A stretch of 64,000 bases of DNA, from the NCBI GenBank assembly GCA_903831805.1, contig CAIKZD010000017.1, positions 77,249-141,248 of the forward strand, in the 5' to 3' direction. Below the pieces are notes generated by a model. That model did no database searches, was not told where the DNA came from, and was given only the letters and a program-made list of their open reading frames with translations. A program made the translations under genes and the position numbers. Every line of letters begins with the position of its first letter. The stretch's first letter is position 1. This DNA comes from an uncultured bacterium. GTDB lineage: Bacteria > Patescibacteriota > Minisyncoccia > Moranbacterales > UBA2206. Shown here in pieces: positions 1-61,107 of the stretch.

Positions 1-1981
1 AATTTTTGGCGTGGTGGTTTATTTTTTGGGCTTAGTCTCATCGGCGCTTTTGGCGTTTTTCGGCCAGTCTTTCAAAAAAGGTGCGCACCTGTTCATTTTT
101 TCTAACGCCATAGGATTTTTATCCGGGCTGGGATATCTTTTAGCTAACCCAGAAGATAATTTTGTGTTAGCCCATTTCACTTGGTTCTTCCAATTCGCGC
201 CGCGCTTGAATTTTTTGGCGGCCATTTTCTTTTTGGTTATCAGTGGCGTGTCTTTTCTGGTGGGAGTGTATAGTTTGCGCTATCTGGAGCTATACGAAAA
301 AGAATATGATCCACGCTTAGTGCAATTCCTGATGGCTTTTTTTGTTTTAGGGATGCAGGGCGTGCTTCTGGCCAACAATACTTTTGCCTTCCTCTTTTTT
401 TGGGAAGTGATGTCGATGACTTCTTTCTTTTTAGTCATGACCGACAAGAAACCAGAATCAATCCAAGCCGCTTTTCTCTATTTCATCATGACGCACTTGG
501 GCGCGTCAGCCATTTTGGGAGGTTTTTTGATTTTGGGCGGCGGATCATTTATTTTTAATTTGAGTGACATCCACAACGCTTCGCTCAATCTTTCGCCGGC
601 GATGCGCGCCATGGCGTTCTTGCTTTTTGTGTTCGGTTTCGGTTCCAAAGCCGGGCTGGTGCCGTTTCATGTGTGGCTACCGGAAGCTCATCCGCAAGCG
701 CCCAGTAATATCTCAGCCATGATGAGCGGCTTGATGTTGAAAATTGCCGTGTATGGTTTTATTACCATCATGCTAAATCTCGCCCATGTTCCAGCTTGGG
801 CGGGTCTGATCGTGCTATTTCTGGGTCTCTTGTCCGGCGTGGTGGGGGCCTTGTACGCGGCCGTGGAAAGAGATATGAAAAAAGCTTTGGCGTATAGCAG
901 TATCGAAAATATGGGCATTATTTTTACGATGTTGGGGCTGGCAGTGTATTTGTTAGCCTTGGACAACTATACGCTTATCGCCTATTCGATTATGGCCTTT
1001 GCCATTTTCCATGCTATAAGTCATGCGTTCTTCAAAACGGCGCTATTCCTCAGCAGCGGAGTGGTGATAAATCGTGTGCACACCAAAAGTTTGGAAATGA
1101 TGGGCGGCTTGGCCAAACTGATGCCGTTTTTCAGTTTTGCCTTTTTGTTGGCTATTCTGGCTTCATTGCCATTGCCATTGTTTGGCACCTTCTATGGCGA
1201 GTGGGGACTGATCCAGAATATTTTGTCTTTATTGGGCGAGGCAAGGATGGGCGCTGGATCTCTCATCGTCCTGCTTATTATTCTTTCGGTCGTGGCACTG
1301 ATCAGCGGGTTGGCCATTTTCGCCATGGTAAAAGTTTTCGCGATGTCGATGTTGGGCTTGCCGCACAATCTGCCTACGGAAAAAAGAGCAGAAAAAAGGG
1401 ATTATCTTTTAGTCACTCCTATCTTATCCTTAGGAGCTGGCGTTCTGTTGCTCGGGTTTTTGGCTAAATTTTTTATCCCACATATAATTATCAGTCTACA
1501 GGCCAGTTCTTCTTTGACGCCGCTGCCGATTTTTTCTCCGGTGCCGCTGAAACTTTCTTCCATGGCGGTTTCCGGTGCAATCATAGTTTTTGGACTGCTG
1601 ATATACCTGGGCCAGAAAATTTTTATGACTAGCAAGCGAGAAAGATTTTATCACACCTGGGATTGCGGCCAAGCCATTGACGCAACGATGCAATATAGTG
1701 CCACCGCCTTTTCTGCGCCCATCAGATTTTTCTTCTTGACTTTCATCGGTCGGAAAAAAATAATGCAATCAGTTGCAGTTCTAGAAACTAATCCATGGAT
1801 TAGGAAATATAATTTTCGCTTATCTATTCGTCCGAATTGGAGTCATATATTTTACGAACCGATTGCGAAAGGCTTGCTCATAGTGGCGAAAAAAATCCGT
1901 TTCATCCAAAATGGGCGCATCCAATATTATATTTTGTTTTTACTCCTTGCTCTAATTGGCACTTTAATTTTCGCTTTATGA
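1..1981 (+). CDS. NuoL/HyfB/HycC-like proton-translocating membrane subunit (5' end runs off window)
   Basis: 656+ aa polytopic membrane protein; conserved complex-I antiporter-like motif WLPEAHPQAPSNISAMMSGLMLKIAVYGF; ORF is open to the window edge. Confidence 0.8.
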   Translation, partial: IFGVVVYFLGLVSSALLAFFGQSFKKGAHLFIFSNAIGFLSGLGYLLANPEDNFVLAHFTWFFQFAPRLNFLAAIFFLVISGVSFLVGVYSLRYLELYEKEYDPRLVQFLMAFFVLGMQGVLLANNTFAFLFFWEVMSMTSFFLVMTDKKPESIQAAFLYFIMTHLGASAILGGFLILGGGSFIFNLSDIHNASLNLSPAMRAMAFLLFVFGFGSKAGLVPFHVWLPEAHPQAPSNISAMMSGLMLKIAVYGFITIMLNLAHVPAWAGLIVLFLGLLSGVVGALYAAVERDMKKALAYSSIENMGIIFTMLGLAVYLLALDNYTLIAYSIMAFAIFHAISHAFFKTALFLSSGVVINRVHTKSLEMMGGLAKLMPFFSFAFLLAILASLPLPLFGTFYGEWGLIQNILSLLGEARMGAGSLIVLLIILSVVALISGLAIFAMVKVFAMSMLGLPHNLPTEKRAEKRDYLLVTPILSLGAGVLLLGFLAKFFIPHIIISLQASSSLTPLPIFSPVPLKLSSMAVSGAIIVFGLLIYLGQKIFMTSKRERFYHTWDCGQAIDATMQYSATAFSAPIRFFFLTFIGRKKIMQSVAVLETNPWIRKYNFRLSIRPNWSHIFYEPIAKGLLIVAKKIRFIQNGRIQYYILFLLLALIGTLIFAL

Positions 1982-3573
1982 ACCCCATCATTGCCACGTT
2001 GATCCAACTGATTTTTGTTCTGCTCGTTGCGCCATATGCTGCGGGTTTGGTGAAATTTTTGAAAGCCCGCTTACAAGGTCGGGACGGCGCGTCACCTTTT
2101 TTATTCTACGTGATGCTTTTCACCTTGCTGCGAAAAGAAATGGTGATCTCGGAAACCGCTTCGTGGATTTTTCGCGCGGTGCCGTTTGTGGTTTTTGGCA
2201 GTACGGTTTTTTTGGCGGCTATCTTGCCGCTTATCTTTACGGGAGCATATCTTGCACCCCTCAGTGATTTTTTGGTGGTGGCGGGCGTGTTGGCTGTGGG
2301 GTCAATATTTTTAGTCTTGGGCGGCCTGGATACTGGCAGCGCTTTTGGCGGGATGGGGTCGAGCCGAGAAATGACCATTGCCACTCTCCTCGAGCCGGTT
2401 ATAGTTATGGTTTTTGCCACTATCAGCTTTGCCACTAAGCAAGCTACCCTGGATGGCATGCTTCGCGTGCAAACCGGTTTTCATCCTTACCTGATTTTGA
2501 CAATCGCGGCGTTAATCCTAGTGGCCTTGGCGGAAAACGCGCGCTATCCGGTGGATAATCCCGCGACGCACTTGGAATTAACGATGGTGCATGAAGCCAT
2601 GATCTTGGAATACAGCGGGAAATATTTAGCTCTTCTGGAATATGCGGCAGCTATAAAATTAGCGGTCTTTTCTTTGCTGATTGCTAATTTTATTTTTCCA
2701 GCGTCACTCATTGGGGCGCCAGCCTTGGGCGGCGGCGCAATAGCTGCCGGATTATTTTGGAGTACGATAAAAATCATAGCGGTCATGATGGCTTTGGCGG
2801 CTTTGGAATCAGTTTTGACCAAGATGCGCTTTTATCGCATGTCGGAATATTTTTCTATTGCATATGTCGTGGCATTTCTCGGAATGATTACGGTTCTGCT
2901 CGCGACCTTTACGGAAGTCTCTTTGCAATATCACACTTTGTTTTCTCTTTTAACTGTCGTATGCGTGGTGTTGCTTTTCGGCAAAGTGCGCCTGAAAGCT
3001 ATTTTGCGCTACTACGCTGTTTCTTCTTTGGCCATCGCCGCTCTGGCTTGGAGTCTGGTGTCACTCGCTCCGGCCGAAGAAAAAATGCATCTGTGGTTAT
3101 TTGCGATTTTCACCATCCTTACTAAAACTTTCGCCGTGCCTTATGTGATCAATCGGTCCAGCCACGCTAAAAAAAGTCTCACTAACTTATCATCATTCCT
3201 CCGTCCAGGGAAAAGTTATTTCCTGGCAGTGGCGCTTCTAGTGGTGACTTATTTCGTCTTAAGACACATCTCGATCACCGGTCTCATCAGATGGAATTCA
3301 TTGCTGTACGCTTCCATAACCCTCATTGTTTTAGGTATTGCGATGATGATTATTAAGAAAAATATATTTTCTCAGATCGTGGGACTTTTGATTATTGAAA
3401 ATGGAATTGCGGTTTTCGTGCTGGCCACCATTGGCTCCCTCCCTATTGTTATTGAGTTTGGAATTTTTGCTGTGACCGTCGTGACTGCCTATATTCTGGC
3501 TATCCTGAGTGCCCGCATTGCGGAGCTTTGCGGCAGTGCGGACACGGACGATTTGCGCGGACTAACTGAATAA
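1978..3573 (+). CDS. HycD/HyfC (NuoH-like) membrane subunit with ~200-aa C-terminal multi-TM extension (possibly HyfE-like)
   Basis: ATGA overlap with upstream stop gives MNPIIATLIQ... start; ENARYPVDNPATHLELTMVHEAMILEYSGKYLALLEYAAAIKL matches the NuoH/HycD loop motif; the track ORF from 1837 is an upstream over-extension. Confidence 0.75.
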   Translation: MNPIIATLIQLIFVLLVAPYAAGLVKFLKARLQGRDGASPFLFYVMLFTLLRKEMVISETASWIFRAVPFVVFGSTVFLAAILPLIFTGAYLAPLSDFLVVAGVLAVGSIFLVLGGLDTGSAFGGMGSSREMTIATLLEPVIVMVFATISFATKQATLDGMLRVQTGFHPYLILTIAALILVALAENARYPVDNPATHLELTMVHEAMILEYSGKYLALLEYAAAIKLAVFSLLIANFIFPASLIGAPALGGGAIAAGLFWSTIKIIAVMMALAALESVLTKMRFYRMSEYFSIAYVVAFLGMITVLLATFTEVSLQYHTLFSLLTVVCVVLLFGKVRLKAILRYYAVSSLAIAALAWSLVSLAPAEEKMHLWLFAIFTILTKTFAVPYVINRSSHAKKSLTNLSSFLRPGKSYFLAVALLVVTYFVLRHISITGLIRWNSLLYASITLIVLGIAMMIIKKNIFSQIVGLLIIENGIAVFVLATIGSLPIVIEFGIFAVTVVTAYILAILSARIAELCGSADTDDLRGLTE

Positions 3574-3641
3574 TTTATTTTAAGTTTAGGACTTAAACAT
3601 TTTGCCGACTGCAAATGCGTAAGTCTTATAGCTAATTTTTT

Positions 3642-5147
3642 ATGAATCTCTTTTTCTTAAGCCTTCCATTCCTAGTCGCTTTTCTTTCTGCGGTCGTCGC
3701 CAAGACGGAAAAAGTAGCACGGAGAAGTAGCCTAGTCTTTTCGGTGATTGGCGGGCTGGCCTCAATTTTTTTCGCTTGGCCGTATCTCTTTAATCCCCAA
3801 AGCCAATTGCTGGGGACGTGGTTCCGGATGGACAGTTTTTCGGCTTTGATGGTTCTGCTCATCGCGTGCATATATATTTTTGCCTTGATCGTGAGCGTGC
3901 GCTACATCGGACATGAGTATGGCGAAAAAATTATTACTTTTTCCCAATACAAAATGTATTTTGCACTCTTCCAGCTGTTCGTGCTTTGCATGCTGGTGGT
4001 TGTTTTGACCAATAATGTACTGTTACTCTGGCTGGCACTGGAAGGCACGACGCTGTCGTCCACTTTTCTGGTGGGATTGTATCGTAAAAAAACCAGTATG
4101 GAGGCGGCTTGGAAATATATGATTATCTGTTCTACGGGCATCAGTCTTGGGCTTTTGGGTATTTTGCTTTTAAGTTACGGAGCCCACGTCGGTGGCGTAG
4201 CGGAAGGCAATATTTTTCTTTTGAATAAATTGGCGGAAAGTGCGCATCTCATACCGATAAATATTATCAAATTGGCTTTCATCTTTATCTTTATTGGGTT
4301 TGGCACTAAAATCGGCTTGGCGCCGATGCACACCTGGCTGCCGGACGCGCACAGCAAAGCGCCATCACCCATCTCGGCCATTTTTTCTGCCGTACTTTTG
4401 ACGGTGGCGCTTTATGCCGTTTTGCGTTTCAAATTTATTGCTGACAATGCTTTTTTGAGTTCGGTTTGGACGAATCATTTATTTTTGATTTTTGGCTTTC
4501 TTTCCATCATGCTTGCGGCGCTTATGATGCTTATTCAAACCAATTATAAAAGGATGTTGGCCTATTCGAGCATTGAACATATGGGCATCATCATTTTTTC
4601 TGTTGGACTCTCGCCGCTTGGTGCGGTGGCTGCCCTCATGCATATACTGGGACATACTTTTGCTAAGTCGATGTTATTCTTCGGAGCAGGAGAAATTTTG
4701 ATTCGTTGGAAAACTACCAAGATCGCCAAGATAAAAAATATGTTCGAAGAGGCGAGATATACCAGTATACTCTTTCTTTTGGGCATCGTTATGATTGTGG
4801 CTATCCCGCCGTCCGCTTTGTTCGTGAGTGAATATGCCATGTTCGCTCAAGTGATTGTTTTGCATCCGGTGGTGTCCATTCTTTTGTTCATCGCCTTGGG
4901 CATCATCGCTTACGCTATGCTTTCACTCAGCGTGAAAATGATTTTTGCGAAGGAGCCCGCCTCCGCTACGAGTTCTGGCGCGGCGAAGCCCGCCCTCGCT
5001 GAAGCTACGGTGGGCAAGGAAAAATGGAATGTTACGCACACCATCATGAGCGTGGAATTGTGCATGGTAGTGTTTTTGGCTTGGTGGCTTACGACGCCGG
5101 GATCGATGGGTGTTCTCGGCAATATAACGAAAACTTTTATTTATTAA
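3642..5147 (+). CDS. NuoM/NuoN/HyfF-like antiporter-type membrane subunit
   Basis: 501 aa; WLPDAHSKAPSPISAIFSAVLLTVALYAVLRF motif; polytopic. Confidence 0.8.
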   Translation: MNLFFLSLPFLVAFLSAVVAKTEKVARRSSLVFSVIGGLASIFFAWPYLFNPQSQLLGTWFRMDSFSALMVLLIACIYIFALIVSVRYIGHEYGEKIITFSQYKMYFALFQLFVLCMLVVVLTNNVLLLWLALEGTTLSSTFLVGLYRKKTSMEAAWKYMIICSTGISLGLLGILLLSYGAHVGGVAEGNIFLLNKLAESAHLIPINIIKLAFIFIFIGFGTKIGLAPMHTWLPDAHSKAPSPISAIFSAVLLTVALYAVLRFKFIADNAFLSSVWTNHLFLIFGFLSIMLAALMMLIQTNYKRMLAYSSIEHMGIIIFSVGLSPLGAVAALMHILGHTFAKSMLFFGAGEILIRWKTTKIAKIKNMFEEARYTSILFLLGIVMIVAIPPSALFVSEYAMFAQVIVLHPVVSILLFIALGIIAYAMLSLSVKMIFAKEPASATSSGAAKPALAEATVGKEKWNVTHTIMSVELCMVVFLAWWLTTPGSMGVLGNITKTFIY

Positions 5148-5168
5148 AAAAATAGCAATTAACAGCAT

Positions 5169-6731
5169 ATGACTATCCAAGAAATTATTGCAGAATTTAA
5201 GGAAAAAATAACTATCGTCAGTGAGAAAAGCGATTTGATAGAAGCTAAAGTTTCTCGGGACGACTTAGCTGAGGTGGCGACAGCTCTGTTTCATGATCAT
5301 AAATTACCATTGTCCCTGATGTTCGCCACGGACAACCGTACGGAAGACGGTAGTTTTGGAGTGCATACTGTTTTCAGTGTTCCCGCCGAAAAGAAGTGGC
5401 TGAAAATTTCGGTGGAAGTTCCGGCTTCTGATCCGCAATATCCCGCGCTCACCAGAACTATTATGGCGGCGCATTGGTATGAAAGATATTTGCGCGACAT
5501 GTTCGGCATCACGCCCGTTGGCCATCCTGATTTGCGCCGTTTGGTGCAGCATGAAAATATGCCAGAAGGCATTCATCCATTGTGCAAGGATTTCTTGTGG
5601 AACACTAAGTTGGAAAAAGCTAATGTGCCGTATCCGATGCATCATGTGACTGGTGACGGGATTTTTGAAATTCCGGTCGGACCGATCCATGCCGGTATCA
5701 TTGAGCCGGGCCATTTTCGTTTCAATGTGGCCGGCGAAAGAATTTTAACCTTGGAAGGCAAACTATTTTTTACGCATAAAGGCGTGGAAAAATTGTTGGA
5801 AGGCAAGAATATCATGGAGGCACTGCCGTTCATTGAAAGGATTTCTGGTGACGCAGCGGCTTCGCACGCTTTAGCGTACTGCGAAGCGGTGGAGAAAATC
5901 GCCGGTTGCGCGGTCCCGCGGCGGGCGCAAATGTTGCGCGCAATTCTCACCGAATGCGAAAGAATCACTATGCACATTCATGACCTGGCCAATATCGGTG
6001 GCATGGGCACGGGGTATAGTTTTATCGCAGCTAATGGTTTTCGTATCAAGGAAAGAATGATGCGTCTTTCGCAAGAGATTTGCGGCAATCGTTTTTGGCG
6101 CGGCCTGATTGTCCCGGGCGGGATAAAAAAAGATATCACTGATGAGGATTTGAAAAAAATATTAAACGTATCTCAAGCGGCCTGGAAAGAAATGGAAAAA
6201 ATTACCATCATCGCGCTCGACAGCGAAGGCTTTTTGGATCGCTTGCAATATACGGGCGAACTGCCAAAAGAGGCGGCCGAAGCCTTTGGGGCGGTCGGTC
6301 CGGCGGCGCGCGCGTCCAAGGTCAGTCGCGATGTGCGGCGCGATCATCCTTATGCCTCTTACGCCGAATTTCCGATCAAAGTCATCACTAAAAAAAGTCT
6401 GGATGTTTTTGCGCGTTATCGTATGCGGATTAAAGAGATTGAACAATCACTGGTTCTGATGCAAACTTTAGTGGAAAAAATGCCAGCTGGAGATATTATG
6501 GAAAAAGTGGCAGTGCGCGATGGCTTTGCACTTGGCGCCGTGGAATCATGGCGCGGAGAAATCATCTGTGCGCTGCAAATTAAAAACGGCGTGATTGAAA
6601 GATGTGTGCCGCGTGATCCCTCTTTTTGCAACTGGGCCCTCTTCGGCATTATGGGTCCCGGCAACATCGTGCCGGATTTCCCACTCATCAACAAAAGTTT
6701 GAATCTGTCCTATTCCGGGACGGACTTGTAA
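5169..6731 (+). CDS. NuoC-NuoD / HycE-like fused catalytic-module subunit lacking NiFe-binding cysteines
   Basis: N-terminal 30-kDa (NuoC)-like domain, then a 49-kDa/large-subunit-like domain (PVGPIHAGIIEPGHFRF). Expected L1 motif ERxCGxC reads ERISGDAAASH; C-terminal DPCxxC reads RDPSFCNW. Confidence 0.75.
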   Translation: MTIQEIIAEFKEKITIVSEKSDLIEAKVSRDDLAEVATALFHDHKLPLSLMFATDNRTEDGSFGVHTVFSVPAEKKWLKISVEVPASDPQYPALTRTIMAAHWYERYLRDMFGITPVGHPDLRRLVQHENMPEGIHPLCKDFLWNTKLEKANVPYPMHHVTGDGIFEIPVGPIHAGIIEPGHFRFNVAGERILTLEGKLFFTHKGVEKLLEGKNIMEALPFIERISGDAAASHALAYCEAVEKIAGCAVPRRAQMLRAILTECERITMHIHDLANIGGMGTGYSFIAANGFRIKERMMRLSQEICGNRFWRGLIVPGGIKKDITDEDLKKILNVSQAAWKEMEKITIIALDSEGFLDRLQYTGELPKEAAEAFGAVGPAARASKVSRDVRRDHPYASYAEFPIKVITKKSLDVFARYRMRIKEIEQSLVLMQTLVEKMPAGDIMEKVAVRDGFALGAVESWRGEIICALQIKNGVIERCVPRDPSFCNWALFGIMGPGNIVPDFPLINKSLNLSYSGTDL

Positions 6732-6756: not shown

Positions 6757-6786
6757 CGCGGAGCTTTCGAGCCCCGCGTTTTTTAT
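6757..6786 (+). terminator. Rho-independent terminator after the hyf-like operon
   Basis: cgcggagctttcgagccccgcg hairpin (cgcgg/ccgcg stem) followed by tttttt. Confidence 0.6.
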
Positions 6787-6836: not shown

Positions 6837-6865
6837 TTGAAAAACGCGGCTAAGTGGGGTAAAAT
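6837..6865 (+). promoter_or_regulatory. Sigma70-like promoter for leuS (TTGAAA-17-TAAAAT)
   Basis: ttgaaa aacgcggctaagtgggg taaaat, about 60 nt upstream of the leuS ATG. Confidence 0.5.
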
Positions 6866-6926: not shown

Positions 6927-9509
6927 ATGGAAGAAAACGCTAAATACAACCCTAATGAAATCGAGGCCAAATGGCAGAAATTTTGGCTTGAAAAAGGGAT
7001 TTCTCTGATAGATAAGGATGATGTGACCAAAGAGAAATTCTATATTTTGGATATGTTTCCCTATCCGTCGGGGGCGGGGTTGCATATGGGGCACACTGAG
7101 AGCTATACGGCTAGTGATGCGGTTTATCGCTATAAGAAACTGCAGGGGTTCAATGTGCTGCATCCACAAGGTTTTGACGCTTTTGGGTTGCCAGCGGAAA
7201 ATTACGCCATCAAGACTGGCATTTCGCCGGTGGAAACGACTAAAATAAATATAATCAATTATATCCGGCAGATGCAGTCTTTGGGTTTCGCCTATGATTT
7301 TTCTGAGCAGGCAGTGACGTGCGATCCGGAATATTATAAGTGGACGCAATGGATCTTTGGAGAATTTTTCAAGCAGGGGTTGGTGTACAAAAAAACATCC
7401 AAGACTAATTGGTGTCCTTCGTGTCAAACGGTGATTGCCAATGAACAGGTAGTGGATGGCAAATGCGAAAGATGCGGGACAGAAATCGAACAAAAAGAAG
7501 TGCCGAGTTGGTTTTTTAAAATTACGGATTTTGCCGAAGAACTTATTAATGGTTTGGACAATGTTGATTGGCCTGAATATACCAAGAAGAATCAGAAAAA
7601 TTGGATAGGGAAAAGTGAAGGAGTGACGGTGAAGTTTCAAATTATGCCCTCTCCTGTCCGGAGTACCGGACATCCTCTCCCGAGTACAGGAGAGGATGAA
7701 TGTATTGAAGTTTTTACGACTCGGGTGGATACGATTTTCGGTTGCACCTATGTCGTTCTGGCGCCGGAGAATGAATTGGTTTCTGTGTTGAAGGAACAAT
7801 GCGAGAATAAGGATGAAATAGAAAAATATATCGAGCAGGCGAAAAACAAGACTGAACTGAATCGGATGGAGGCCAAGGAAAAAACCGGCGTGGAGCTGAA
7901 AGGCGTGCGAGCCATCAATCCGTTCAACGATGAAAACGTCCCTGTTTATATTGCGGACTATGTCTTAGCAAGCTATGGCACCGGTGCAGTGATGGCCGTG
8001 CCGGTGCATGACGAACGGGATTGGGAGTTTGCGGATAACCACAATTTGCCGAAAAAAGGCGTTATTATTCCTAGACCTATAAAATCAGGCTTACTCATCG
8101 GTGATGAAATTGATAATGTCGATGAGTCGTATGAACATTTTGACAATTACGCAAATAAAAAAAAGGATAATATTAGAAAAGGCATAGAAATTTTTGTTGA
8201 AGACGGGACCGTAATTGATTCCGGAGAGTTTAATAAATTAAATTCTGACGAGGCGCGGGAAAAAATGGCGGTGTGGCTGGAAGAAAAAAAGCTGGGCAAG
8301 AAAATCGTGAATTATCGTTTGCGGGATTGGTCTATTTCACGGCAACGTTATTGGGGCTGTCCGATCCCGATTGTCTATTCGCCGGACGGTGAAGCGCATC
8401 TGGTGCCGGAAGAGCATCTGCCATGGAAACTGCCAATGGACGTGGACTTTGTGCCGACTGGTATTTCACCTTTGGCCAAATCCGCGGAACTGAAAAAACG
8501 TACGGAAGAAATTTTTGGAGCGGGTTGGACTGCGGAATATGACACGATGGACACCTTTGTCGATTCATCGTGGTATTTTTTGCGTTATCCTGATGCGCAT
8601 AATGACCAAGAATTCTGTTCCAAAGAGAGGCTGAAAAAATGGTTGCCGGTAGACGTGTATATCGGCGGCGCGGAACACACCTACATGCATCTTTTGTTTG
8701 CTAGATTTTTCGTGAAAGCCATGCATCGGATCGGCATTCTTGATTTTGACGAACCGTTTTTGAAGTTGCGGCATCAGGGGATGGTATTGGATAAGGAAGG
8801 AAAAAAGATGTCAAAGTCCAAGGGGAACGTTATCAACCCGGATGATATGGTGGCAAAATTTGGGGCAGACAGTGTGCGGACCTATATGCTTTTTGCGACG
8901 CCACTGGAAGATGCGGTGATGTGGAATGAGAATAATATTGTCGGAGTGAGGAGGTTTTTGGAGAAAGTTTGGAAATTGCAATACAAAATTACAAATTACA
9001 AATTACAAATTACAAATAAAATCCAAAATCCAAATGATCAAAATAAAAAACTAGTTTCGCTCATTAATAAAACGATCAAAAAAGTCGGGGAGGACATTGA
9101 AAATTTCCGGTTCAATACGGCAGTGAGTCAGTTGATGATACTCGTGAATGAGATGGAAAAACAGACAGAAATAGTCGCTGCTGATTATGAAAAATTACTG
9201 CTTTTGCTAGCGTCTTTCGCGCCGCATATTGCGGAGGAAATTTTCCAAAAAGTTTTGGGTCACGAGGAATCAATATTTTTGCAGAAGTGGCCAGAGTTTG
9301 AGGAAGCGTTGACCAAAGACGAAACAATAAATCTAGTATTGCAAGTGAATGGCAAGGTGCGTGATATGGTATCAGTAGGCGCGGACATTGCAGAAGAGGA
9401 GGCGAAAAAAATCGCGCTGGTCAGTGAGAAAATCCAAAAGCATATCGGCGGCAAAGAGGTCAAGAAAATTATTTTTGTTCCAGGTAAATTGGTTAATATT
9501 GTAATCTAA
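6927..9509 (+). CDS. leuS: Leucyl-tRNA synthetase
   Basis: 860 aa; HMGH (HIGH) and KMSKS motifs; N-terminus YNPNEIEAKWQKFW; CP1 editing domain TTRVDTIFG; contains two atypical in-frame insertions (see findings). Confidence 0.97.
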   Translation: MEENAKYNPNEIEAKWQKFWLEKGISLIDKDDVTKEKFYILDMFPYPSGAGLHMGHTESYTASDAVYRYKKLQGFNVLHPQGFDAFGLPAENYAIKTGISPVETTKINIINYIRQMQSLGFAYDFSEQAVTCDPEYYKWTQWIFGEFFKQGLVYKKTSKTNWCPSCQTVIANEQVVDGKCERCGTEIEQKEVPSWFFKITDFAEELINGLDNVDWPEYTKKNQKNWIGKSEGVTVKFQIMPSPVRSTGHPLPSTGEDECIEVFTTRVDTIFGCTYVVLAPENELVSVLKEQCENKDEIEKYIEQAKNKTELNRMEAKEKTGVELKGVRAINPFNDENVPVYIADYVLASYGTGAVMAVPVHDERDWEFADNHNLPKKGVIIPRPIKSGLLIGDEIDNVDESYEHFDNYANKKKDNIRKGIEIFVEDGTVIDSGEFNKLNSDEAREKMAVWLEEKKLGKKIVNYRLRDWSISRQRYWGCPIPIVYSPDGEAHLVPEEHLPWKLPMDVDFVPTGISPLAKSAELKKRTEEIFGAGWTAEYDTMDTFVDSSWYFLRYPDAHNDQEFCSKERLKKWLPVDVYIGGAEHTYMHLLFARFFVKAMHRIGILDFDEPFLKLRHQGMVLDKEGKKMSKSKGNVINPDDMVAKFGADSVRTYMLFATPLEDAVMWNENNIVGVRRFLEKVWKLQYKITNYKLQITNKIQNPNDQNKKLVSLINKTIKKVGEDIENFRFNTAVSQLMILVNEMEKQTEIVAADYEKLLLLLASFAPHIAEEIFQKVLGHEESIFLQKWPEFEEALTKDETINLVLQVNGKVRDMVSVGADIAEEEAKKIALVSEKIQKHIGGKEVKKIIFVPGKLVNIVI
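8983..9050. repeat. In-frame (CAAATTA)n-containing ~65-nt element within leuS
   Basis: acaaaattacaaattacaaattacaaattacaaataaaatccaaaatccaaatgatcaaaataaaaaa; encodes KITNYKLQITNKIQNPNDQNKK. Confidence 0.8.
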
Positions 9510-11567: not shown

Positions 11568-13034
11568 ATGGAAAATAAAAATATTCAGAAAATATCCCAA
11601 GAAAAATTTTTTACTTTGTCGGAATTCCGCCATCGAGTCGGCATCCCTCTCATTATGGCCAAAAAGTTAGTCATGTGGGGCGAGGTTGAAGCGGTGCGGG
11701 CCATTGACGGCACATGGCTCATTGCAGAAACGGAAGTGGTGAAAGTGGCGGAGCTGATCAAAAATCCTTGGAAAAAAATGTACTTTTTCTTTCGCGCCTT
11801 AGGGCCGGGCGTGATTACCGGTGCTTCGGATGATGATCCGAGCGGCATTGGGACCTATTCTTCCGTGGGAGCGCAATTCGGTTTGGGACTTTTATGGATG
11901 GCGGCCTGGATCCTGCCGATGATGATGGCCATCCAAGAAGCGTGCGCGCGGATTGGGATTGTGACCAATCGAGGACTAGCCGGCGTTTTGCAGAAGCACT
12001 ATAGACGCAAAGTGATGGTGGGCATCGTTTCCATCCTTATCCTGGCCAACGTCATCAATATTGGAGCGGATTTGGGTGCGATGGCTAAATCTTTGCAGAT
12101 GCTCATGCATGTCAATTTTTATCTGGCCGCTATCGCCTTTGCGGCGGTCATTATTTTCCTAGAAGTTTTTGTGGGCTATCACACGTATGTCAAAATTTTA
12201 AAATGGTTGGCAATTTCAGTTTTGGCTTATGTGGTAACTGGCATTATTATTAAACCTGATTGGCATGCCGTCCTGGTGGCCACAATTATTCCGAAGATGA
12301 ATTTCAGTCGAGAATATTTGTTTGCGATCGTGGCGGTGTTCGGTACTAGTATCACACCCTACTTGTTTTTTTGGCAGACTTCGGAAGAGGTGGAAGAGAA
12401 CAAAAAAGACAAAAAAATCTTTCGCAGTTTGCATCAGAAAGATGACCGCACGATGGTCAACCGGATTGCCAAAATGCGCACAGACGTCGGCACTGGCATG
12501 ATCTTGGCGAATGTCGTGTTCTTTTTTATTGTTGTTACTACGGCGCAAGTTCTGTTCAAAAATGGCATTTTCAACGTGGATTCGCCGGAGCAAGCGGCTT
12601 TGGCACTTCGTCCGCTCGCCGGCGACTATGCTTATTTGATGTTTGCCTTCGGCATCATCGGGACCGGACTTTTGGCGGTGCCGATCCTGGCGGGCTCCGG
12701 CGCCTATGCCCTGTCTGAAACGATGAAATGGCAAGAAGGATTGGAAGAGAAATTTTCGCGGGCCAAAGGATTCTATCTGGTGATCATTGTTTCCATTCTG
12801 GTCGGACTGGCGCTGAATTTTTTCCATATCAATCCAATCGCGGCGCTCTACTATTCCGCATTTTTGAATGGCGTGATTTCTTTGCCGCTCCTGGTGGCCA
12901 TCATGATCGTGAGTGATGACAAGAAAATCATGGGCCGCGAAAGCAACCCCATGTGGGTCAGAATTTTTGGTTGGTTCGCCGTAGTCTTCATTGCCGGCGT
13001 GCTCACTCTCTCTGGCATATTATATTTCACTTAA
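11568..13034 (+). CDS. mntH: NRAMP-family divalent metal transporter
   Basis: GPGVITGASDDDPSGIGTYSSVGAQFG consensus NRAMP motif; 11 TM; about 60-aa N-terminal extension, so the true start may be an internal Met. Confidence 0.8.
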   Translation: MENKNIQKISQEKFFTLSEFRHRVGIPLIMAKKLVMWGEVEAVRAIDGTWLIAETEVVKVAELIKNPWKKMYFFFRALGPGVITGASDDDPSGIGTYSSVGAQFGLGLLWMAAWILPMMMAIQEACARIGIVTNRGLAGVLQKHYRRKVMVGIVSILILANVINIGADLGAMAKSLQMLMHVNFYLAAIAFAAVIIFLEVFVGYHTYVKILKWLAISVLAYVVTGIIIKPDWHAVLVATIIPKMNFSREYLFAIVAVFGTSITPYLFFWQTSEEVEENKKDKKIFRSLHQKDDRTMVNRIAKMRTDVGTGMILANVVFFFIVVTTAQVLFKNGIFNVDSPEQAALALRPLAGDYAYLMFAFGIIGTGLLAVPILAGSGAYALSETMKWQEGLEEKFSRAKGFYLVIIVSILVGLALNFFHINPIAALYYSAFLNGVISLPLLVAIMIVSDDKKIMGRESNPMWVRIFGWFAVVFIAGVLTLSGILYFT

Positions 13035-26649: not shown

Positions 26650-28752
26650 TTAGGATTTTTTCCAATATTGCCCCAACCAGGTGATGCCGGCTGGCAAATG
26701 CTTTATCCAGAAAGGCCAATTATGCTCCCCGGGAAAAGGTATTAAATCGGCTTGGAAATCCTTGTTCTTCAATAGGGTGAGTACGTTATTGCCATCGGCA
26801 AGATCAGCTGAGCGCTTATCCGTTATCATTATCACCCTAGTAGTATTATCTTTCAATGTTGGAATGTAGTCAATCGGAGAATTTTCTTGGACTATTTGTT
26901 TGGAAGTTATAAAGGATTTAGTGAGGGGTGTGATGGGAAGTTCGCCGTAGCCGGAAAGGGAGATGGCATAGCCGAAAACATCCTGATGTTTCAAAGCGAT
27001 ATTCAAAGCGCCGAAACCGCCTTCAGATAGGCCGCCAATCGCTCTATGACCAGCATCTGGAATGGTTGGAAAATTATTATCTACGTAATTAACTACAGTC
27101 TTAGCGATAAAATCTTCATTAGGACCTAGCGCGGAATTGATATATTGCGTATCCACGTTATTACTGCCGTTACCATCCGGGAAGACCGCAATGAATGGTG
27201 CAATGCTCCCATCAGCAATCCTTTGATCCAAAGTTTGTTGTGCGCGTCCATGATACAGCCAGTCAGAGGCTTCTCCCGGCGAGCCATGCAAAAGATAGAG
27301 GACGGGATAGTGTTGGCTTTTATCGTTCGGATCGTACCCCTTGGGCAGATAGAGGAGGACTTCACGTGATTTGCCCGGCGCCATTTGTAAAATCGTCTTC
27401 ACGACCAAAGAGCCTTGTTGCAGCCGGGTTTGACTGGCTGTGTCGGCCGCCAATGCATTTGCTTTTAGTAGATCCGAATCATATTGTTTGCCGAAGGGAT
27501 TGTAATTTGGGAAAAAGCGGATCGTGTCGATCAGTCTGTCCGGCCAAAAAGGAAAGATTCGGATATCGTCCGTAAATTGGTCAGGATTCACTTTATACCA
27601 AATGGTCGCTGCAAAAAAAATACTCACCAGAAAAATGGTTATCCCGAGCATGATTTTGGCCATGCCGCCCAAGATTTTTCTGGACATTGTTTTAGGGCGA
27701 TGGACATTGTCTTTACAGCTAGTCCCAAAAAAGCCAGAAACTCTGCCTGATTTTTCTTGGGAAATCAAGCGATGATATAGGCCAAGACTGACCAAAAACG
27801 GGACAAGATAGTAGATGATCCTGAAAAGGACAGAGGCTGCCACAGCGACAGGCAGCGGGGCGCCCAGGATGTGATAGATAGCTACTTCGGACAGGTCTTG
27901 CACGCCCAGGCCGCCAGGAATGAAAGAGACCAAGCCGGCGATAACTGACAGGAAAAAACCAGCCATGAGCGCCATGAACGAAAATGTAAAGCCGAAAGCC
28001 ATGAAGCAAAATTCGAAAATCAAAAGACACAGCAGCCAATCAGCTAGGAAAGTGGCCAACATCCGGACAAAATCTCCTGGTCGTTTCTTGCTCAAAGCAA
28101 GACCGTTGTCCAAGGCTTGGCTGGTGTTTTTCAAGGATACTTGGATATCAATTTTGATGAGGGCGTGGACTAGCCAAGCTATGCTACTAAAAAGTTTCTG
28201 GCGGATTTTTTTCGAGAACAAGAAAAAAGTGAGGGCCAGGAAGAAAACGGCAAAAATCATGAGGGCCGCTTGGAACGCCGGCGCAAAACGCGCGGCAATC
28301 ATCCCGGTCAAAAGGGCATAGGCGACCGAGAAGGCGGAAAAGAACAGAATGACTAAAAAATTCAAATACGAGAAAAAAAGTGAAGCAGCCATGATGTGGG
28401 AGCCTTTATCTTTTTCGTTCTTGAGTAGCATCACGCGTAAGGAATAGCCGACGGTGCCGCCGAGGGTCAGTAGGTTGTTGAAAGCGATGGTGACTACGCC
28501 GATGATGAACAGTTTTTTCCTTTCTGTCGACAGGCCAAAAAGGATGTTGAGCAGGGTGTAAGCTTCGGCCGCTAAGACTAAGGAAACGCCCGTTGCCAAA
28601 AAGGCGGCGATGGCAAAAAACCAATTGGCTCGCGCCAGAACGGACAGGGATTTATTTTTTTCTAAGAATAAAACTAAGCCGAAAGTCAACAGTAAAAGAC
28701 CAAAAATTATTTTGGGCCAGGGCAGGCGCTTAATGGGAGAGGAATTTTTCAT
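26650..28752 (-). CDS. MprF-type flippase (LPG-synthase TM / UPF0104) domain fused to alpha/beta-hydrolase esterase domain
   Basis: N-terminal ~330 aa polytopic (GG..G..L..NLLTLGGTVGYSLRV); C-terminal HYPVLYLLHGSPGEASDW...GGLSEGGFGALNIALKH putative-esterase family motifs (GxSxG). Confidence 0.7.
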   Translation of the reverse strand: MKNSSPIKRLPWPKIIFGLLLLTFGLVLFLEKNKSLSVLARANWFFAIAAFLATGVSLVLAAEAYTLLNILFGLSTERKKLFIIGVVTIAFNNLLTLGGTVGYSLRVMLLKNEKDKGSHIMAASLFFSYLNFLVILFFSAFSVAYALLTGMIAARFAPAFQAALMIFAVFFLALTFFLFSKKIRQKLFSSIAWLVHALIKIDIQVSLKNTSQALDNGLALSKKRPGDFVRMLATFLADWLLCLLIFEFCFMAFGFTFSFMALMAGFFLSVIAGLVSFIPGGLGVQDLSEVAIYHILGAPLPVAVAASVLFRIIYYLVPFLVSLGLYHRLISQEKSGRVSGFFGTSCKDNVHRPKTMSRKILGGMAKIMLGITIFLVSIFFAATIWYKVNPDQFTDDIRIFPFWPDRLIDTIRFFPNYNPFGKQYDSDLLKANALAADTASQTRLQQGSLVVKTILQMAPGKSREVLLYLPKGYDPNDKSQHYPVLYLLHGSPGEASDWLYHGRAQQTLDQRIADGSIAPFIAVFPDGNGSNNVDTQYINSALGPNEDFIAKTVVNYVDNNFPTIPDAGHRAIGGLSEGGFGALNIALKHQDVFGYAISLSGYGELPITPLTKSFITSKQIVQENSPIDYIPTLKDNTTRVIMITDKRSADLADGNNVLTLLKNKDFQADLIPFPGEHNWPFWIKHLPAGITWLGQYWKKS

Positions 28753-60044: not shown

Positions 60045-60878
60045 ATGAAAAAAGAGTTGGTATTTTTCGAAAATTTTAAGATTCGCCGCCATTATGATGA
60101 AAAGGCGGAAATTTGGTATTTTTCGGTGGTGGATATTATCGCTGTGCTTTTAGAACAAAAAGATTTTCAGGCTGCTAGAAATTATTGGAAAGTTTTGAAA
60201 AATCGCCTTAAATCTGAGGGTAGCGAAGTGGTTACAGAATGTAACCGGTTGAAAATGAAGGCAGAAGACGGAAAAATGCGTGAAACGGATGCCGCAAACC
60301 CAGAAACAATTTTTCGTCTAATTCAATCTGTGCCCAGTCCTAAAACTGAACCAATCAAATTGTGGTTGGCTAAAGTGGGTTATGAAAGAATCCAAGAAAT
60401 GTCCGATCCGGAAAAATCTTTGGATCGTGCGCGCGAAAATTGGGAGAGACATGGGCACACTAAGAAGTGGATCCAGCAAAGGATGATGGGACAGGAAATT
60501 AGGAATAAGCTGACTGATTATTGGCAAGATAACGGCGTCAAAGAAAAAGAAGAGTTTGCTATTTTGACCAATATCATTCATCAAGAATGGACAGGGCTAA
60601 CCGTCAAAGGACATAAGAAGTTAAAAGGTTTGAAAACACAGAACCTGCGCGACCATATGAGCGATGCGGAGTTGGTTTTCACAGCTCTCGCGGAATTGTC
60701 CACGCGTCAAATTGCCCAAACGTTGGAAGCTAAAGGTATGGGTGAAAATAAGGTGGCTAGCAAGCGTGGCGGGTCAGTCGCTAAGAAGGCAAGAATTGAT
60801 TTGGAATTGAAAACTGGTAAAAAAATAGTTTCGAAGGATAATTTTTTGCAAAAGCGACGTGTTGAGAAATTGAAATGA
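60045..60878 (+). CDS. DinD-like DNA-damage-inducible protein (Bro-N domain family)
   Basis: N-terminal FENFKIRRHYDEKAEIWYFSVVDIIAVLLE...EPIKLWLAKVGYERI resembles Bro-N/DinD; 277 aa. Confidence 0.6.
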   Translation: MKKELVFFENFKIRRHYDEKAEIWYFSVVDIIAVLLEQKDFQAARNYWKVLKNRLKSEGSEVVTECNRLKMKAEDGKMRETDAANPETIFRLIQSVPSPKTEPIKLWLAKVGYERIQEMSDPEKSLDRARENWERHGHTKKWIQQRMMGQEIRNKLTDYWQDNGVKEKEEFAILTNIIHQEWTGLTVKGHKKLKGLKTQNLRDHMSDAELVFTALAELSTRQIAQTLEAKGMGENKVASKRGGSVAKKARIDLELKTGKKIVSKDNFLQKRRVEKLK

Positions 60879-61107
60879 CGCAGCTGTGGATAACTTCCTG
60901 CAAAATAATGTTTCATAAAAAGGAAAAATCGGGTATAATAAAAATAGCGCTTCTGTCATTCCTGCGTAGGCAGGAATCCAGTCACATATCATTAAGTTTC
61001 TACACTAGATTCCCGTATACACGAGAATGACAAATACGCGTAAGACTATTCCTAATAACATAAAGCATAATTTTTTTAAGCCTAACTAAATCTTTGCACT
61101 GCATGCA

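Follow-up and report, generated by a model that had tools for sequence, protein, structure and literature searches.

Ions move through complex I, MBH and Mrp antiporters along the same charged axis. The name of the Ehr (energy-converting / Ech-hydrogenase-related) complexes is said to go back to Coppi in 2005 and to Marreiros et al. in 2013. In bacteria of the candidate phyla radiation (CPR), Ehr large subunits without metal-binding cysteines form a monophyletic, CPR-specific clade (Jaffe et al. 2020, PMC7304191), and the function of Ehr was still called unknown in 2025 (PMC12342949).

Here, an Ehr-type cluster at the start of a 64-kb stretch of DNA (termed the window) from a small-genome bacterium of the Moranbacteria type was analyzed. 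Its initial annotation as an Ehr-type relative of Hyf/formate hydrogenlyase is supported by the sequence signature, a phylogenetic tree, the predicted fold, and the alignment with HycE. The presence of such a complex in a small genome had been called unexpected, which was overstated. Because the Cys-less CPR clade was published in 2020, the core observation is not new. Added here are a NuoB-like fifth gene without FeS ligands, the lack of a ferredoxin subunit, the retention of the ion path, and links to neighboring genes.

Organization of the gene cluster

The cluster encodes a five-gene CPR-type Ehr complex, which comprises a NuoB-like protein, a HyfB-like protein, a HyfC-HyfE fusion, a HyfF-like protein, and a NuoC-NuoD fusion. 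The last four are encoded by closely packed open reading frames on the same strand at positions 1-6731 of the window (Table 1), and the Pfam and NCBIfam matches confirmed the subunit types that had been proposed. The HyfB-like protein has a full length of 665 aa, and the first 17 nt of its gene lie upstream of the window (L001 6343-8340). Its stop codon is overlapped by 4 nt by the start of the fusion gene. The NuoC-NuoD fusion was matched by the profiles Complex1_30kDa (PF00329, 5e-22) and by the two that had been suggested for confirmation, Complex1_49kDa (PF00346, 2e-41) and NiFeSe_Hases (PF00374, 2e-8).

Table 1. Features of the cluster and its 3′ border (positions refer to the window)
Feature	Position	Strand	Evidence
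HyfB/NuoL-like antiporter-type membrane subunit	1..1981	+	PF00361 5e-50, PF00662; NCBIfam 'hydrogenase 4 subunit B' 1e-139
NuoH/HycD/HyfC-like + HyfE/NuoK-like fusion	1978..3573	+	PF00146 (NADHdh) 9e-27
HyfF/NuoM-N-like antiporter-type membrane subunit	3642..5147	+	PF00361 7e-52; NCBIfam hydrogenase-4 subunit F 1.5e-104
NuoC-NuoD fusion, HycE/HyfG-like large subunit without NiFe ligands	5169..6731	+	Profile matches and HycE alignment
NiFe L1 remnant ERISGDAAASH, aa 223-233	5835..5867	+	Aligns to E. coli HycE DRVCGICGFAH
RDPSFCNW, aa 482-489, non-ligand block	6612..6635	+	Aligns to HycE RAATYANW, MbhL REPTFPNL, Nqo4 RAPSFVNL
True NiFe L2 remnant SLNLSYSGTDL, aa 510-520, stop codon next	6696..6728	+	Aligns to HycE SLDPCYSCTDR
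Terminator-like GC-rich hairpin + U6 run	6757..6784	+	RNA fold -13.3 kcal/mol, z = -3.2
Promoter-like site for leuS, TTGAAA-17-TAAAAT	6837-6865		

At its 3′ end, the cluster is closed by the terminator-like hairpin, and leuS comes next, confirming that no NuoB- or NuoI-like gene lies downstream. Such genes, if present, had been expected upstream. A NuoB-like gene was indeed found there, ending 20 nt upstream of the window, but no NuoI/HycF-like gene. The NuoB-like gene is preceded by the F1Fo ATP-synthase operon atpBEFHAGDC; the gap between atpC and nuoB contains a promoter-like site, and no terminator was found in it. The alternative that had been named, a piece of an ordinary Nuo operon, is contradicted by this upstream region together with the Hyf-type gene order and profiles. 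Among 33 CPR species-level loci (large subunits 50-84% identical to that of the window), all five genes were found intact whenever the contig extended far enough.

For four of the five subunits, nothing matched better in sequence and fold than E. coli Hyf/Hyc (FHL, PDB 7Z0S), namely HycE (6.6e-80), HycG (4e-29), and HycD (3e-24), in addition to the HyfB, HyfE, and HyfF profiles. An AF2 model of the large subunit (pLDDT 81.7, pTM 0.87) had HycE as its best fold match (7z0s_E, TM 0.86). Also the gene order resembles that of E. coli hyf (B, C, E, F, G), but the small-subunit gene is located in front in the CPR cluster and behind in E. coli. In contrast to Hyf/Hyc, the CPR cluster contains no NiFe site, FeS cluster, HyfA/HyfH/HycF ferredoxins, or HyfD, and neither a formate dehydrogenase nor maturation genes are nearby. 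The complex descends from group-4 [NiFe] hydrogenases.

Loss of the metal ligands

The residue-by-residue alignment with HycE supports the earlier claim that the large subunit is unable to bind a NiFe center, as the four Cys ligands are gone. L1 had been located correctly, and its two cysteines are replaced by S226 and A229. The block RDPSFCNW had been taken for L2 and was rejected, as it aligns to a different conserved block in HycE, MbhL, and Nqo4. The true L2 comprises the last 11 residues of the protein, with S514 and G517 in place of the cysteines. The loss of all four ligands was thus correctly stated despite the mislocated motif, because the true L2 also lacks both cysteines. Shifted ligands were looked for as well, and no conserved Cys was found in L1 or L2.

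The altered sites are highly conserved. In at least 120 homologous protein clusters (62-100% identity) they read E-R-[LI]-S-G-D (L1) and SLNLSYSG[TN]D[LM] (L2); S226, G227, and D228 are invariant in the 120 homologues, and the L2 remnant is kept in 116-118 of them. In a library of 1.8 billion proteins, the Ehr signature S-G-D (L1) and S-Y-[SA]-G-x-D (L2) was common to most Cys-less homologues, and in a neighbor-joining tree the clade was nested among Cys-less Ehr-type sequences. Position 228 is an aspartate in 73 of 84 Ehr-type representatives, whereas in 28 true hydrogenases it is mostly V, A, or I, and D is never among the commonest residues. The complex-I quinone-site residues are absent, Nqo4 H38 and Y87 aligning to I178 and G227, respectively. 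Three cysteines are conserved in the close homologues, C487 within RDPSFCNW (119/120), C479 (116/120), and C467 (102/120). They are clade-specific, being conserved neither in the wider Ehr family nor in hydrogenases. They could form an unrecognized metal site, which counts against the redox-independent reading given below.

In the NuoB-like protein, T65, E68, G132, and S162 align to the [4Fe-4S] cysteines of HycG and MbhJ, and thus all four ligands are replaced. The same loss was found in 33 of 33 related sequences (32 CPR loci and L047), with T, E, G, and S/D/N/E as the replacing residues; Prevotella NuoB proteins, used as controls, kept all four cysteines. The ferredoxin motif CxxCxxCxxxC was found in no plausible gene of the 64-kb window or of the CPR loci, but solely in spurious reading frames of 55-72 aa; the control loci carrying NuoI or Fer4 were picked up. 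Redox enzymes of any kind were not found in the window, and there was no conserved redox neighbor across 34 loci. A [4Fe-4S] cluster without a single Cys ligand is not known. With the NuoB cysteines lost and no ferredoxin subunit, the complex is therefore devoid of a recognizable redox center: the NiFe cysteines, the proximal [4Fe-4S] cysteines, and the ferredoxin-type subunit have all been lost. For the same reason, the initial question about its electron donor and acceptor probably started from a wrong premise, and we infer that the complex would be unable to transfer electrons.

Classical Ehr complexes share with the CPR clade the signature described above, including the Ehr-typical D228 and D483, and an equal set of NuoL-, NuoH-, HyfE-, NuoM-, NuoC/D-, and NuoB-like subunits. 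In contrast to the CPR clade, non-CPR classical clusters (L045, L046, L132, L070-L078, L113) keep all four NuoB cysteines, and some of them have a Fer4 domain or gene. The CPR clade further differs by nuoB as the first gene, the HyfC-HyfE fusion of Moranbacteria, and the synteny with F-ATPase and carbonic anhydrase (CA) genes.

Conservation of the ion path

Conservation of the ion path was quantified with 33-36 sequences, the large subunits of which are 50-100% identical to that of the window. Both antiporter-like subunits contain the TM5 Glu, the TM7 and TM8 Lys, the TM11 His/His/Lys, and the TM12 Glu. These residues are at least 95% conserved in the HyfB-like subunit (E141, K222, K299, H343, H347, K351, E406; 35 sequences) as well as in the HyfF-like subunit (E134, K223, K303, H334, H338, K342, E397; 36 sequences). 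In the alignment of the latter with E. coli NuoL, E134 corresponds to E144 and H334/H338/K342 to H334/H338/K342. The NuoH/HycD-like part of the fusion protein (about aa 1-315) aligns to HycD (7z0s_D) and MbhM and contributes many invariant acidic residues of the E-channel, including E131, E139, E186, D193, E200, E206, E211, and E221. The extra TM extension that had been noticed in this gene is real and represents a fused HyfE/NuoK-like domain (about aa 325-531, nt about 2950-3570; NF008556 'hydrogenase 4 membrane subunit' 4.7e-15, PF00420 (Oxidored_q2) 3.5e-5) with two membrane glutamates, E474 (100% conserved) and E493 (97%). In 16 related loci HyfE is encoded on its own, and the fusion is found in the Moranbacteria branch. 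The charged axis is conserved under strong purifying selection.

The modular architecture and the conserved ion-path residues are shared with complex I (Nuo) and with P. furiosus MBH/MBS, whereas the N-module, NuoI, cluster N2, the quinone-site Tyr/His, and the NiFe site are missing from the CPR cluster.

Gene neighborhood and possible functions

In 16 of 34 loci, this one included, the cluster has ATP-synthase genes of the same strand as neighbors, and so it does in a distant FeS-less lineage (L130). Eight Kaiserbacteria-type loci have neither ATPase nor CA neighbors. All electron-moving metal sites have been lost and the ion-pumping parts have been kept; therefore, the most probable task of the complex is to move ions in a way that involves no redox reaction. 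We hypothesize a redox-independent machine that is coupled to an ion gradient and linked to the F1Fo ATPase, a reading that draws on conservation and gene neighborhood and has about an even chance of being correct. The membrane arm would conduct H+ (or, in some relatives, Na+), and the cofactor-less NuoB/NuoCD cap, the former metal sites of which now hold new invariant acidic and polar residues, would have a coupling or regulatory role outside redox chemistry. The complex would share its ion circuit with the ATPase encoded directly upstream, which in a fermenter would build the gradient via ATP hydrolysis. The coupled chemistry might be the interconversion of CO2 and bicarbonate, a suggestion that comes from the gene neighborhood of relatives and is unsupported in this window. 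In DabAB, a PF00361 subunit is already known to be coupled to a reaction that is not a redox reaction (10.1101/476713; 10.64898/2026.03.13.711513).

A more specific version of this ion machine, which we regard as possible but rather unlikely, is that ion flow through Ehr renders CO2 hydration by a docked CA vectorial and thereby traps bicarbonate in the cell or manages cytoplasmic H+/HCO3-, with the gradient supplied by the neighboring F-ATPase. In its favor, 15 of 34 loci have a CA-like gene of the same strand either as the immediate neighbor of the cluster or in the gap between atpC and nuoB; these genes represent three unrelated families (CsoSCA-type, Pro_CA_2, Cam/CcmM-type gamma-CA) and occur in at least five different arrangements. 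No CA-like gene was found in the 64-kb window. The CsoSCA-type family has an invariant zinc-site pattern (C-x-D-x-R, H, C), and in other lineages (L070, L074, L075, L078) its genes and classical Ehr clusters are arranged tail-to-tail. Ehr/PF00361 is its commonest neighbor family; nevertheless, the reverse test was weak, as about 9 of 80 loci centered on CsoSCA-type homologues had an Ehr or PF00361 neighbor and most homologues were thus not beside an Ehr cluster. In addition, a CA gene adjoins the atp operon without Ehr in L060 and L067, and therefore the CA link could be to the ATPase. A sister lineage (L128/L129) contains an inorganic-carbon island of SulP, Ehr, DabA, DabB, and SulP, and Geobacter Ehr subunits reached their highest abundance on formate, a substrate that yields CO2 (PMC7894505). 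Working precedents are DabAB/MpsAB and cyanobacterial NDH-1MS (CupA), in which a complex-I-type antiporter-like subunit makes CO2 hydration vectorial (10.1101/476713); for Ehr, such a coupling is suggested by the neighborhood, which in L128 includes DabAB itself. However, the cluster has no homologue of DabA (PF10070) or CupA, its CA-like neighbors belong to other families, and this version does not account for the retained NuoH/B/C/D module, because DAB needs a single PF00361 subunit. No fusion protein or physical sign of docking was found, and the literature search yielded no paper linking Ehr with CA, so that nothing independent backs the idea.

The classical view is that Ehr is still a redox enzyme, in which electrons delivered by a partner oxidoreductase, e.g., formate dehydrogenase in the proposed FDH-Ehr, or via an unconventional cofactor reach the pocket of the large subunit and drive ion pumping (PMC6349859; 10.1101/765248). 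It is in agreement with the NuoB cysteines and occasional Fer4 domains of classical clusters, and the three clade-specific cysteines could in principle bind metal. For the CPR clade it is nevertheless improbable, considering the replaced FeS ligands, the lack of a Cys-free [4Fe-4S] precedent, and the absence of ferredoxin motifs, redox enzymes, and conserved redox neighbors described above. An even smaller probability is assigned to a decaying relic, i.e., a former hydrogenase operon that is being lost and has no present function. The disappearance of all catalytic metal ligands and the reductive evolution of CPR genomes would fit, but the five reading frames are intact, homologues occur in at least 120 protein clusters, 29-33% of the cap-subunit positions are at least 95% identical (including the residues replacing the ligands), about 7.3 kb are kept for the five genes in genomes of roughly 1 Mb, and Geobacter Ehr proteins are expressed (PMC7894505). 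A conventional Nuo fragment or a true hydrogenase with merely shifted ligands has a negligible probability. Many homologues are named 'NADH-quinone oxidoreductase subunit C' by NCBI, and RDPSFCNW contains one conserved Cys; however, NuoA, E, F, G, I, and J are all missing, the gene order and best profile matches are Hyf-type, the large subunit has neither the His nor the Tyr of the quinone site, and L1 and L2 lack conserved cysteines.

For a redox-independent ion machine, the closest analogue of the proposed working mode would be the Mrp antiporters. Both have the conserved Glu/Lys axis in NuoL/M/N-like (PF00361) and NuoK-like subunits, which Mrp uses independently of redox chemistry. In contrast to Mrp, the CPR cluster lacks MrpB, E, F, and G as well as the MrpA C-terminal domain, and it has two parts that are missing in Mrp, namely a NuoH-like subunit and the soluble NuoB/C/D cap. 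Why a simple antiporter should conserve such a cap is not obvious, which speaks against this mode.

Organization of the gene cluster

Four co-directional genes with gaps of -4, 68, and 21 nt occupy positions 1-6731 of the window, and their identities were established by profile searches (see the table). The "extra TM extension" that the initial annotation had described for the NuoH/HycD-like protein turned out to be a fused HyfE/NuoK-like domain. The upstream DNA was taken from a 79.7 kb scaffold (ENA ERZ18624148, BUCK21-1 scaffold_44), of which the window is the final 64 kb. The gene order on this scaffold is atpB-E-F-H-A-G-D-C, a spacer of 114 nt, a NuoB-like gene, and hyfB, the start codon of which lies 17 nt upstream of window position 1. 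The NuoB-like gene encodes a protein of 183 aa (PF01058) and stops 3 nt ahead of hyfB. The atpC-nuoB spacer contains a promoter-like sequence (TTGACA-16-TAGGAT) and no terminator. The cluster is ended by a terminator-like hairpin at 6757-6784, and leuS is the next gene. The nearest named homologues were found in Candidatus Moranbacteria (Moraniibacteriota) and other Parcubacteria/Patescibacteria, i.e., in bacteria of the candidate phyla radiation (CPR).

Replacement of the redox centre ligands

The large subunit, the NuoC-NuoD fusion, was aligned residue by residue with E. coli HycE (7Z0S chain E, E = 6.6e-80). At the first NiFe-ligating site, L1, the sequence ERISGDAAASH corresponds to DRVCGICGFAH of HycE, and the two Cys are replaced by S226 and A229. 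The second site, L2, is the C-terminus SLNLSYSGTDL (HycE: SLDPCYSCTDR), and S514 and G517 occupy the Cys positions. The initial annotation was therefore partly confirmed: the Cys-less L1 and the inability to bind NiFe were borne out, but L2 had been misplaced to RDPSFCNW, which aligned with RAATYANW of HycE and RAPSFVNL of Nqo4 and is a separate conserved block. The L1 motif RxCGxCxxxH and the L2 motif DPCxxCxxH/R of group 4 [NiFe] hydrogenases are thus absent, and the same is true for 120 homologues. The replacement residues were invariant across the 120 homologue clusters (62-100% identity), which is a signature of purifying selection and not of decay.

An AlphaFold2 model of the large subunit (pLDDT 81.7, pTM 0.87) had HycE as its top fold match (TM 0.86); the PDB contained no Ehr (energy-converting-hydrogenase-related) structure. 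The loops of the former active site (residues 156-188 and 493-520) are the two most conserved segments and the sole low-confidence parts of the monomer model. Three further Cys, C467, C479, and C487 (window positions 6567-6569, 6603-6605, and 6627-6629), are kept in 102-119 of 120 close homologues, and their conservation is absent from the wider Ehr family and from hydrogenases. They could bind a metal or be linked in a disulfide.

The loss of ligands extends to the small subunit. Alignment with HycG, MbhJ, and complex I NuoB placed T65, E68, G132, and S162 at the four [4Fe-4S] ligand positions of the NuoB-like protein. The 33 related sequences, from 32 CPR loci and the related locus L047, all lack the four Cys, which were kept in the Prevotella complex I NuoB controls of the same alignment. 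Hence, the proximal [4Fe-4S] Cys of a group 4 hydrogenase small subunit (HycG/EchC/MbhJ-like) and the ligands of complex I cluster N2 are absent, and the protein differs from the redox-competent small subunits of the classical Ehr clusters examined, in which the FeS Cys are present. The quinone ligands H38 and Y87 of Nqo4 (T. thermophilus numbering) are replaced by I178 and G227. A HycF/EchF/NuoI-like 2x[4Fe-4S] subunit was found neither in the cluster nor in its flanks. In a six-frame scan of the 64-kb window and all loci for CxxCxxCxxxC, the CPR loci gave only spurious short ORFs, while the controls, Prevotella NuoI and an Aquicultor Fer4-NuoB fusion, were recovered, and a hidden ferredoxin subunit was thus rejected for the window and these CPR loci.

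Taken together, the upstream NuoB-like gene, the replaced ligands, the lack of a HycF/NuoI-like gene, and the terminator-like hairpin show that the cluster is a unit of five genes without a recognizable redox centre. No mention of FeS-ligand loss in Ehr small subunits was found in the searchable literature, and the full loss of redox centres appears to be new.

Conservation of the ion path and the cap

Conservation was scored as at least 95% identity across 33-36 sequences. At this threshold, the ion-path residues E141, K222, K299, H343, H347, K351, and E406 are conserved in HyfB, and E134, K223, K303, H334, H338, K342, and E397 in HyfF; the HyfF positions align with E144 and H334/H338/K342 of E. 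coli NuoL. A run of acidic residues in the NuoH-like part reached the same level, and the membrane glutamates E474 and E493 are conserved in the HyfE part. The invariant residues of the soluble cap cluster at the former metal sites, namely E68, E69, E71, and D131 of NuoB and E223, S226, D228, D483, S514, and D519 of the large subunit.

Relationship to other Ehr complexes

Ehr complexes are widespread and occur, e.g., in Geobacter, Nitrospira, Margulisbacteria, Elusimicrobia, and CPR bacteria. Their evolutionary place is at the junction of membrane hydrogenases and complex I, and to our knowledge, a function has been demonstrated for none of them.

The Ehr-type interpretation of the initial annotation was supported by several features. 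The large subunit is homologous to group 4 hydrogenases and NuoD and lacks the NiFe Cys, and NuoB-, NuoC-, NuoH-, and NuoL/M/N-like subunits are co-encoded. It carries the Ehr-type signature (S-G-D, S-Y-[SA]-G-x-D). Of the 150 top relatives from 1.8 billion representative proteins, about two thirds had this signature, and about a fifth to a quarter were true four-Cys hydrogenases. Two acquired aspartates, D228 and D483, set the Ehr-type proteins apart from hydrogenases. In a quick neighbour-joining distance tree of large subunits (not maximum likelihood), the CPR-type clade was nested in the Cys-less Ehr proteins, and none of the 47 nearest sequences had the four Cys. This is in agreement with Jaffe et al. 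2020 (PMC7304191), where CPR Ehr large subunits without metal-binding Cys were described as a monophyletic clade. The Cys-less CPR large subunit has thus been published already; the Ehr small subunit and an ATP synthase or antiporter context of Ehr are not discussed in that study.

When one genome per GTDB species was scanned, the five-gene cluster was found at 33 CPR loci, which belonged to Moraniibacteriota, Uhrbacteria, Kaiserbacteria, Minisyncoccota, and others. The classical Ehr clusters included in the analysis, among them those of Ca. Aquicultor, a Binatia-like contig, an archaeal-like contig, and several metagenome contigs, have the complete set of FeS Cys (4/4), and some of them contain a Fer4 domain or gene. 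FeS-less clusters were also found outside of the CPR, at the loci L047, L128, and L130. Therefore, the cofactor-less state is a derived variant of Ehr, and a description of it was not found in the searchable literature. The large subunit of L047 (4340-11578; ENA ERZ25039513 contig_2030, 1.5 Mb) is 59% identical to that of the window. The host probably does not belong to the CPR, as the neighbouring genes encode an RND efflux system, a TetR regulator, and a SusC-like TonB-dependent receptor, and the locus suggests lateral transfer of the cluster between CPR and other bacteria.

Genomic neighbourhood

All flanking ORFs were clustered for 34 CPR-type loci (the 33 species loci and the window scaffold) and the non-CPR locus L047. 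Only two recurrent neighbours emerged, F-type ATP synthase genes and genes similar to carbonic anhydrases (CA). Of the 34 CPR-type loci, 16 carry ATP synthase genes in the same orientation as the cluster, which they precede in 15 cases and follow in L005, a Moranbacteria relative with a large subunit 82% identical to that of the window. The ATP synthase is also found 3.5 kb away from the cluster in the distant FeS-less lineage L130. Eight Kaiserbacteria-type loci have neither neighbour, and Pfam searches with the genes around them were not informative. The c-subunit of the window organism (513-740 of L043, the upstream part of the same scaffold) is of the H+-type (GIGIG...AEAVAIY). That of L005 (13910-14137) resembles the Fusobacterium nucleatum subunit in its Na+-type two-carboxylate site (IGEG...ESTGIY), with a Glu at the Glu32 position and E-S-T-x-x-Y (matching PMC3692424). 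Due to this lack of uniformity, a Na+-coupled ATPase was dropped as a general clue.

CA-like genes are present in 15 of the 34 loci, always on the strand of the cluster, and either adjoin it or lie between atpC and nuoB. Three unrelated families are represented, the CsoSCA-type (8 loci), Pro_CA_2 (2 loci), and Cam/CcmM-type gamma-CA (5 loci). C-x-D-x-R, H, and C are invariant in the CsoSCA-type neighbours.

Coordinates of the cluster genes in the window and of the CA-like neighbours in related loci (L-numbers)
Locus	Feature	Coordinates	Strand	Basis
Window	HyfB/NuoL-like	1-1981		profile search
Window	NuoH/HycD-like with C-terminally fused HyfE/NuoK-like domain	1978-3573		profile search
Window	HyfF-like	3642-5147		profile search
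Window	NuoC-NuoD fusion	5169-6731		profile search
L009	CsoSCA-type	2070-3095	cluster strand	
L010	CsoSCA-type	2876-3919	cluster strand	
L015	CsoSCA-type	3077-4102	cluster strand	
L018	CsoSCA-type	2774-3799	cluster strand	
L026	CsoSCA-type	3301-4323	cluster strand	
L035	CsoSCA-type	about 3259-4290	cluster strand	
L013	CsoSCA-type	11688-12740	cluster strand	
L017	CsoSCA-type	11688-12767	cluster strand	
L005	Pro_CA_2	11753-12595	cluster strand	
L012	Pro_CA_2	11668-12624	cluster strand	
L011	gamma-CA	11916-12524	cluster strand	
L014	gamma-CA	11676-12290	cluster strand	
L019	gamma-CA	12044-12850	cluster strand	
L020	gamma-CA	11806-12411	cluster strand	
L016	gamma-CA	7644-7781	cluster strand	

In other lineages, CsoSCA-type CA genes are arranged tail-to-tail with classical Ehr clusters. 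An apparent inorganic-carbon island was found at L128 (688-18777) and L129, contigs with the protein P0283, which carry an FeS-less Ehr cluster of a lineage that is sister to the CPR clade. The order is SulP, nuoB-hyfBCEF-nuoCD, a convergent pair of DabA (PF10070) and DabB (PF00361), and a second SulP. In the reverse test with 80 metagenome loci centred on CsoSCA-type CA, about 9 had an Ehr or PF00361 neighbour, and 2 had atp genes alone; the association of the CsoSCA-type CA with Ehr is one-sided. No paper on a link between Ehr and CA was found in the searchable literature, and the ATPase/CA/DabAB neighbourhood of Ehr appears to be new.

Several smaller features of the loci were recorded. DUF4349 membrane proteins adjoin the cluster or its CA neighbour in seven loci (L006, 11678-12634; L011-L014, L017, and L005), and a Na+/Ca2+ exchanger gene (PF01699) lies directly 3' of nuoCD in L009 (10680-11639). 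Within the ATP synthase operon, atpG and atpD lie unusually far apart, by about 0.8-1.1 kb, in L043 (4300-5353) and similarly in L004, L011, L013, L014, and L020; the L043 spacer contains only an antisense ORF of 93 aa without a Pfam match.

Possible function and alternative explanations

Several explanations for the ligand-free cluster were weighed. A mere shift of the NiFe ligands, one of the objections named in the initial annotation, was rejected because L1 contains no conserved Cys and the conserved C467, C479, and C487 do not align with ligand positions. The other objection, a fragment of a conventional Nuo operon, was ruled out by the upstream sequence, which consists of the atp operon and the NuoB-like gene. 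Respiratory complex I has the NuoA-N set, of which the cluster contains just the B-, C/D-, H-, K-, L-, and M/N-like genes. Both shifted ligands and a Nuo fragment are thus much less likely explanations, and the same grade was given to a decaying relic and to a cryptic redox enzyme. The latter corresponds to the usual "unknown oxidoreductase" model of Ehr, which becomes much less likely, at least for the CPR-type clade, because the electron-carrying sites are gone and the ion-translocating arm is kept.

We infer that the complex is incapable of electron transfer. From the lack of NiFe, FeS, and quinone ligands, the intact and selected ion path, the conserved five-gene unit, and the synteny with the ATPase, a mechanism can be proposed in which the complex would be a gradient-coupled ion translocator, mechanistically nearest to Mrp, with the cap serving for coupling or regulation without redox activity. 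In a fermenter that does not respire, the gradient would come from the ATPase encoded next to the cluster. The working mode may resemble that of Mrp antiporters, but these have the seven-subunit set MrpA-G and no soluble cap, whereas the Ehr cluster encodes only MrpA/D-like and MrpC(NuoK)-like homologues and adds the NuoH/B/C/D module.

In the most specific form of the proposed mechanism, the ion flow might power vectorial CO2 hydration by a partner CA, a step that we consider conceivable but rather improbable, by analogy to DabAB, in which ion flow drives this reaction (10.1101/476713; 10.64898/2026.03.13.711513). In DAB/CupA-type systems, a PF00361 subunit is encoded together with a CA-like partner; such adjacency exists in 15 of the 34 related loci, but not in the window, which is a caveat for this reading. 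The most far-reaching version, which we regard as unlikely at present, is that cofactor-less Ehr could serve as membrane engine for a gradient-driven CO2/bicarbonate-handling system that has so far escaped recognition; in CPR bacteria that do not respire, the neighbouring F-type ATPase would supply the power. Such a system would be the third independent recruitment of complex I modules for vectorial CA chemistry, after NDH-1MS/CupA and DabAB. If this gradient-driven CO2/bicarbonate reading is true, it would suggest a function for the whole Ehr family, because classical Ehr clusters adjoin the same CA family, too.

The CPR clade is the extreme case of Ehr, as every electron-carrying site has been lost and the ion-translocating arm has been retained. 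It offers a natural setting where the complex I machinery for conformational change and ion transfer would run without redox chemistry. In CPR bacteria without respiratory chains, the complex is among the very few candidates for a role, alongside the ATPase, in shaping the ion gradient across the membrane. The three kinds of CA, DabAB, and SulP in its vicinity provide a testable hypothesis for Ehr function.

Remainder of the window

The remainder of the window contains housekeeping genes, including those for ParAB, tRNA synthetases, TopA, RelA/SpoT, RpoA, and MprF-like proteins. No redox enzyme, ferredoxin, CA, or RuBisCO was found in the rest of the 64 kb, and Rfam and tRNA scans of the window detected only a tRNA-Leu. 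A homologue of VirD4/TrwB-like coupling proteins is encoded at 43906-45861, and a Bro-N domain protein and a beta-helix protein of 829 aa are encoded at the end of the window (60045-63597), where the GC content is low (0.39); these genes may be remnants of a mobile element. The MprF-like lysyl-phosphatidylglycerol synthase is apparently split into two genes on the minus strand (26650-30443), one of which combines LPG_synthase_TM with an esterase domain in a fusion, and the second of which has LPG_synthase_C.
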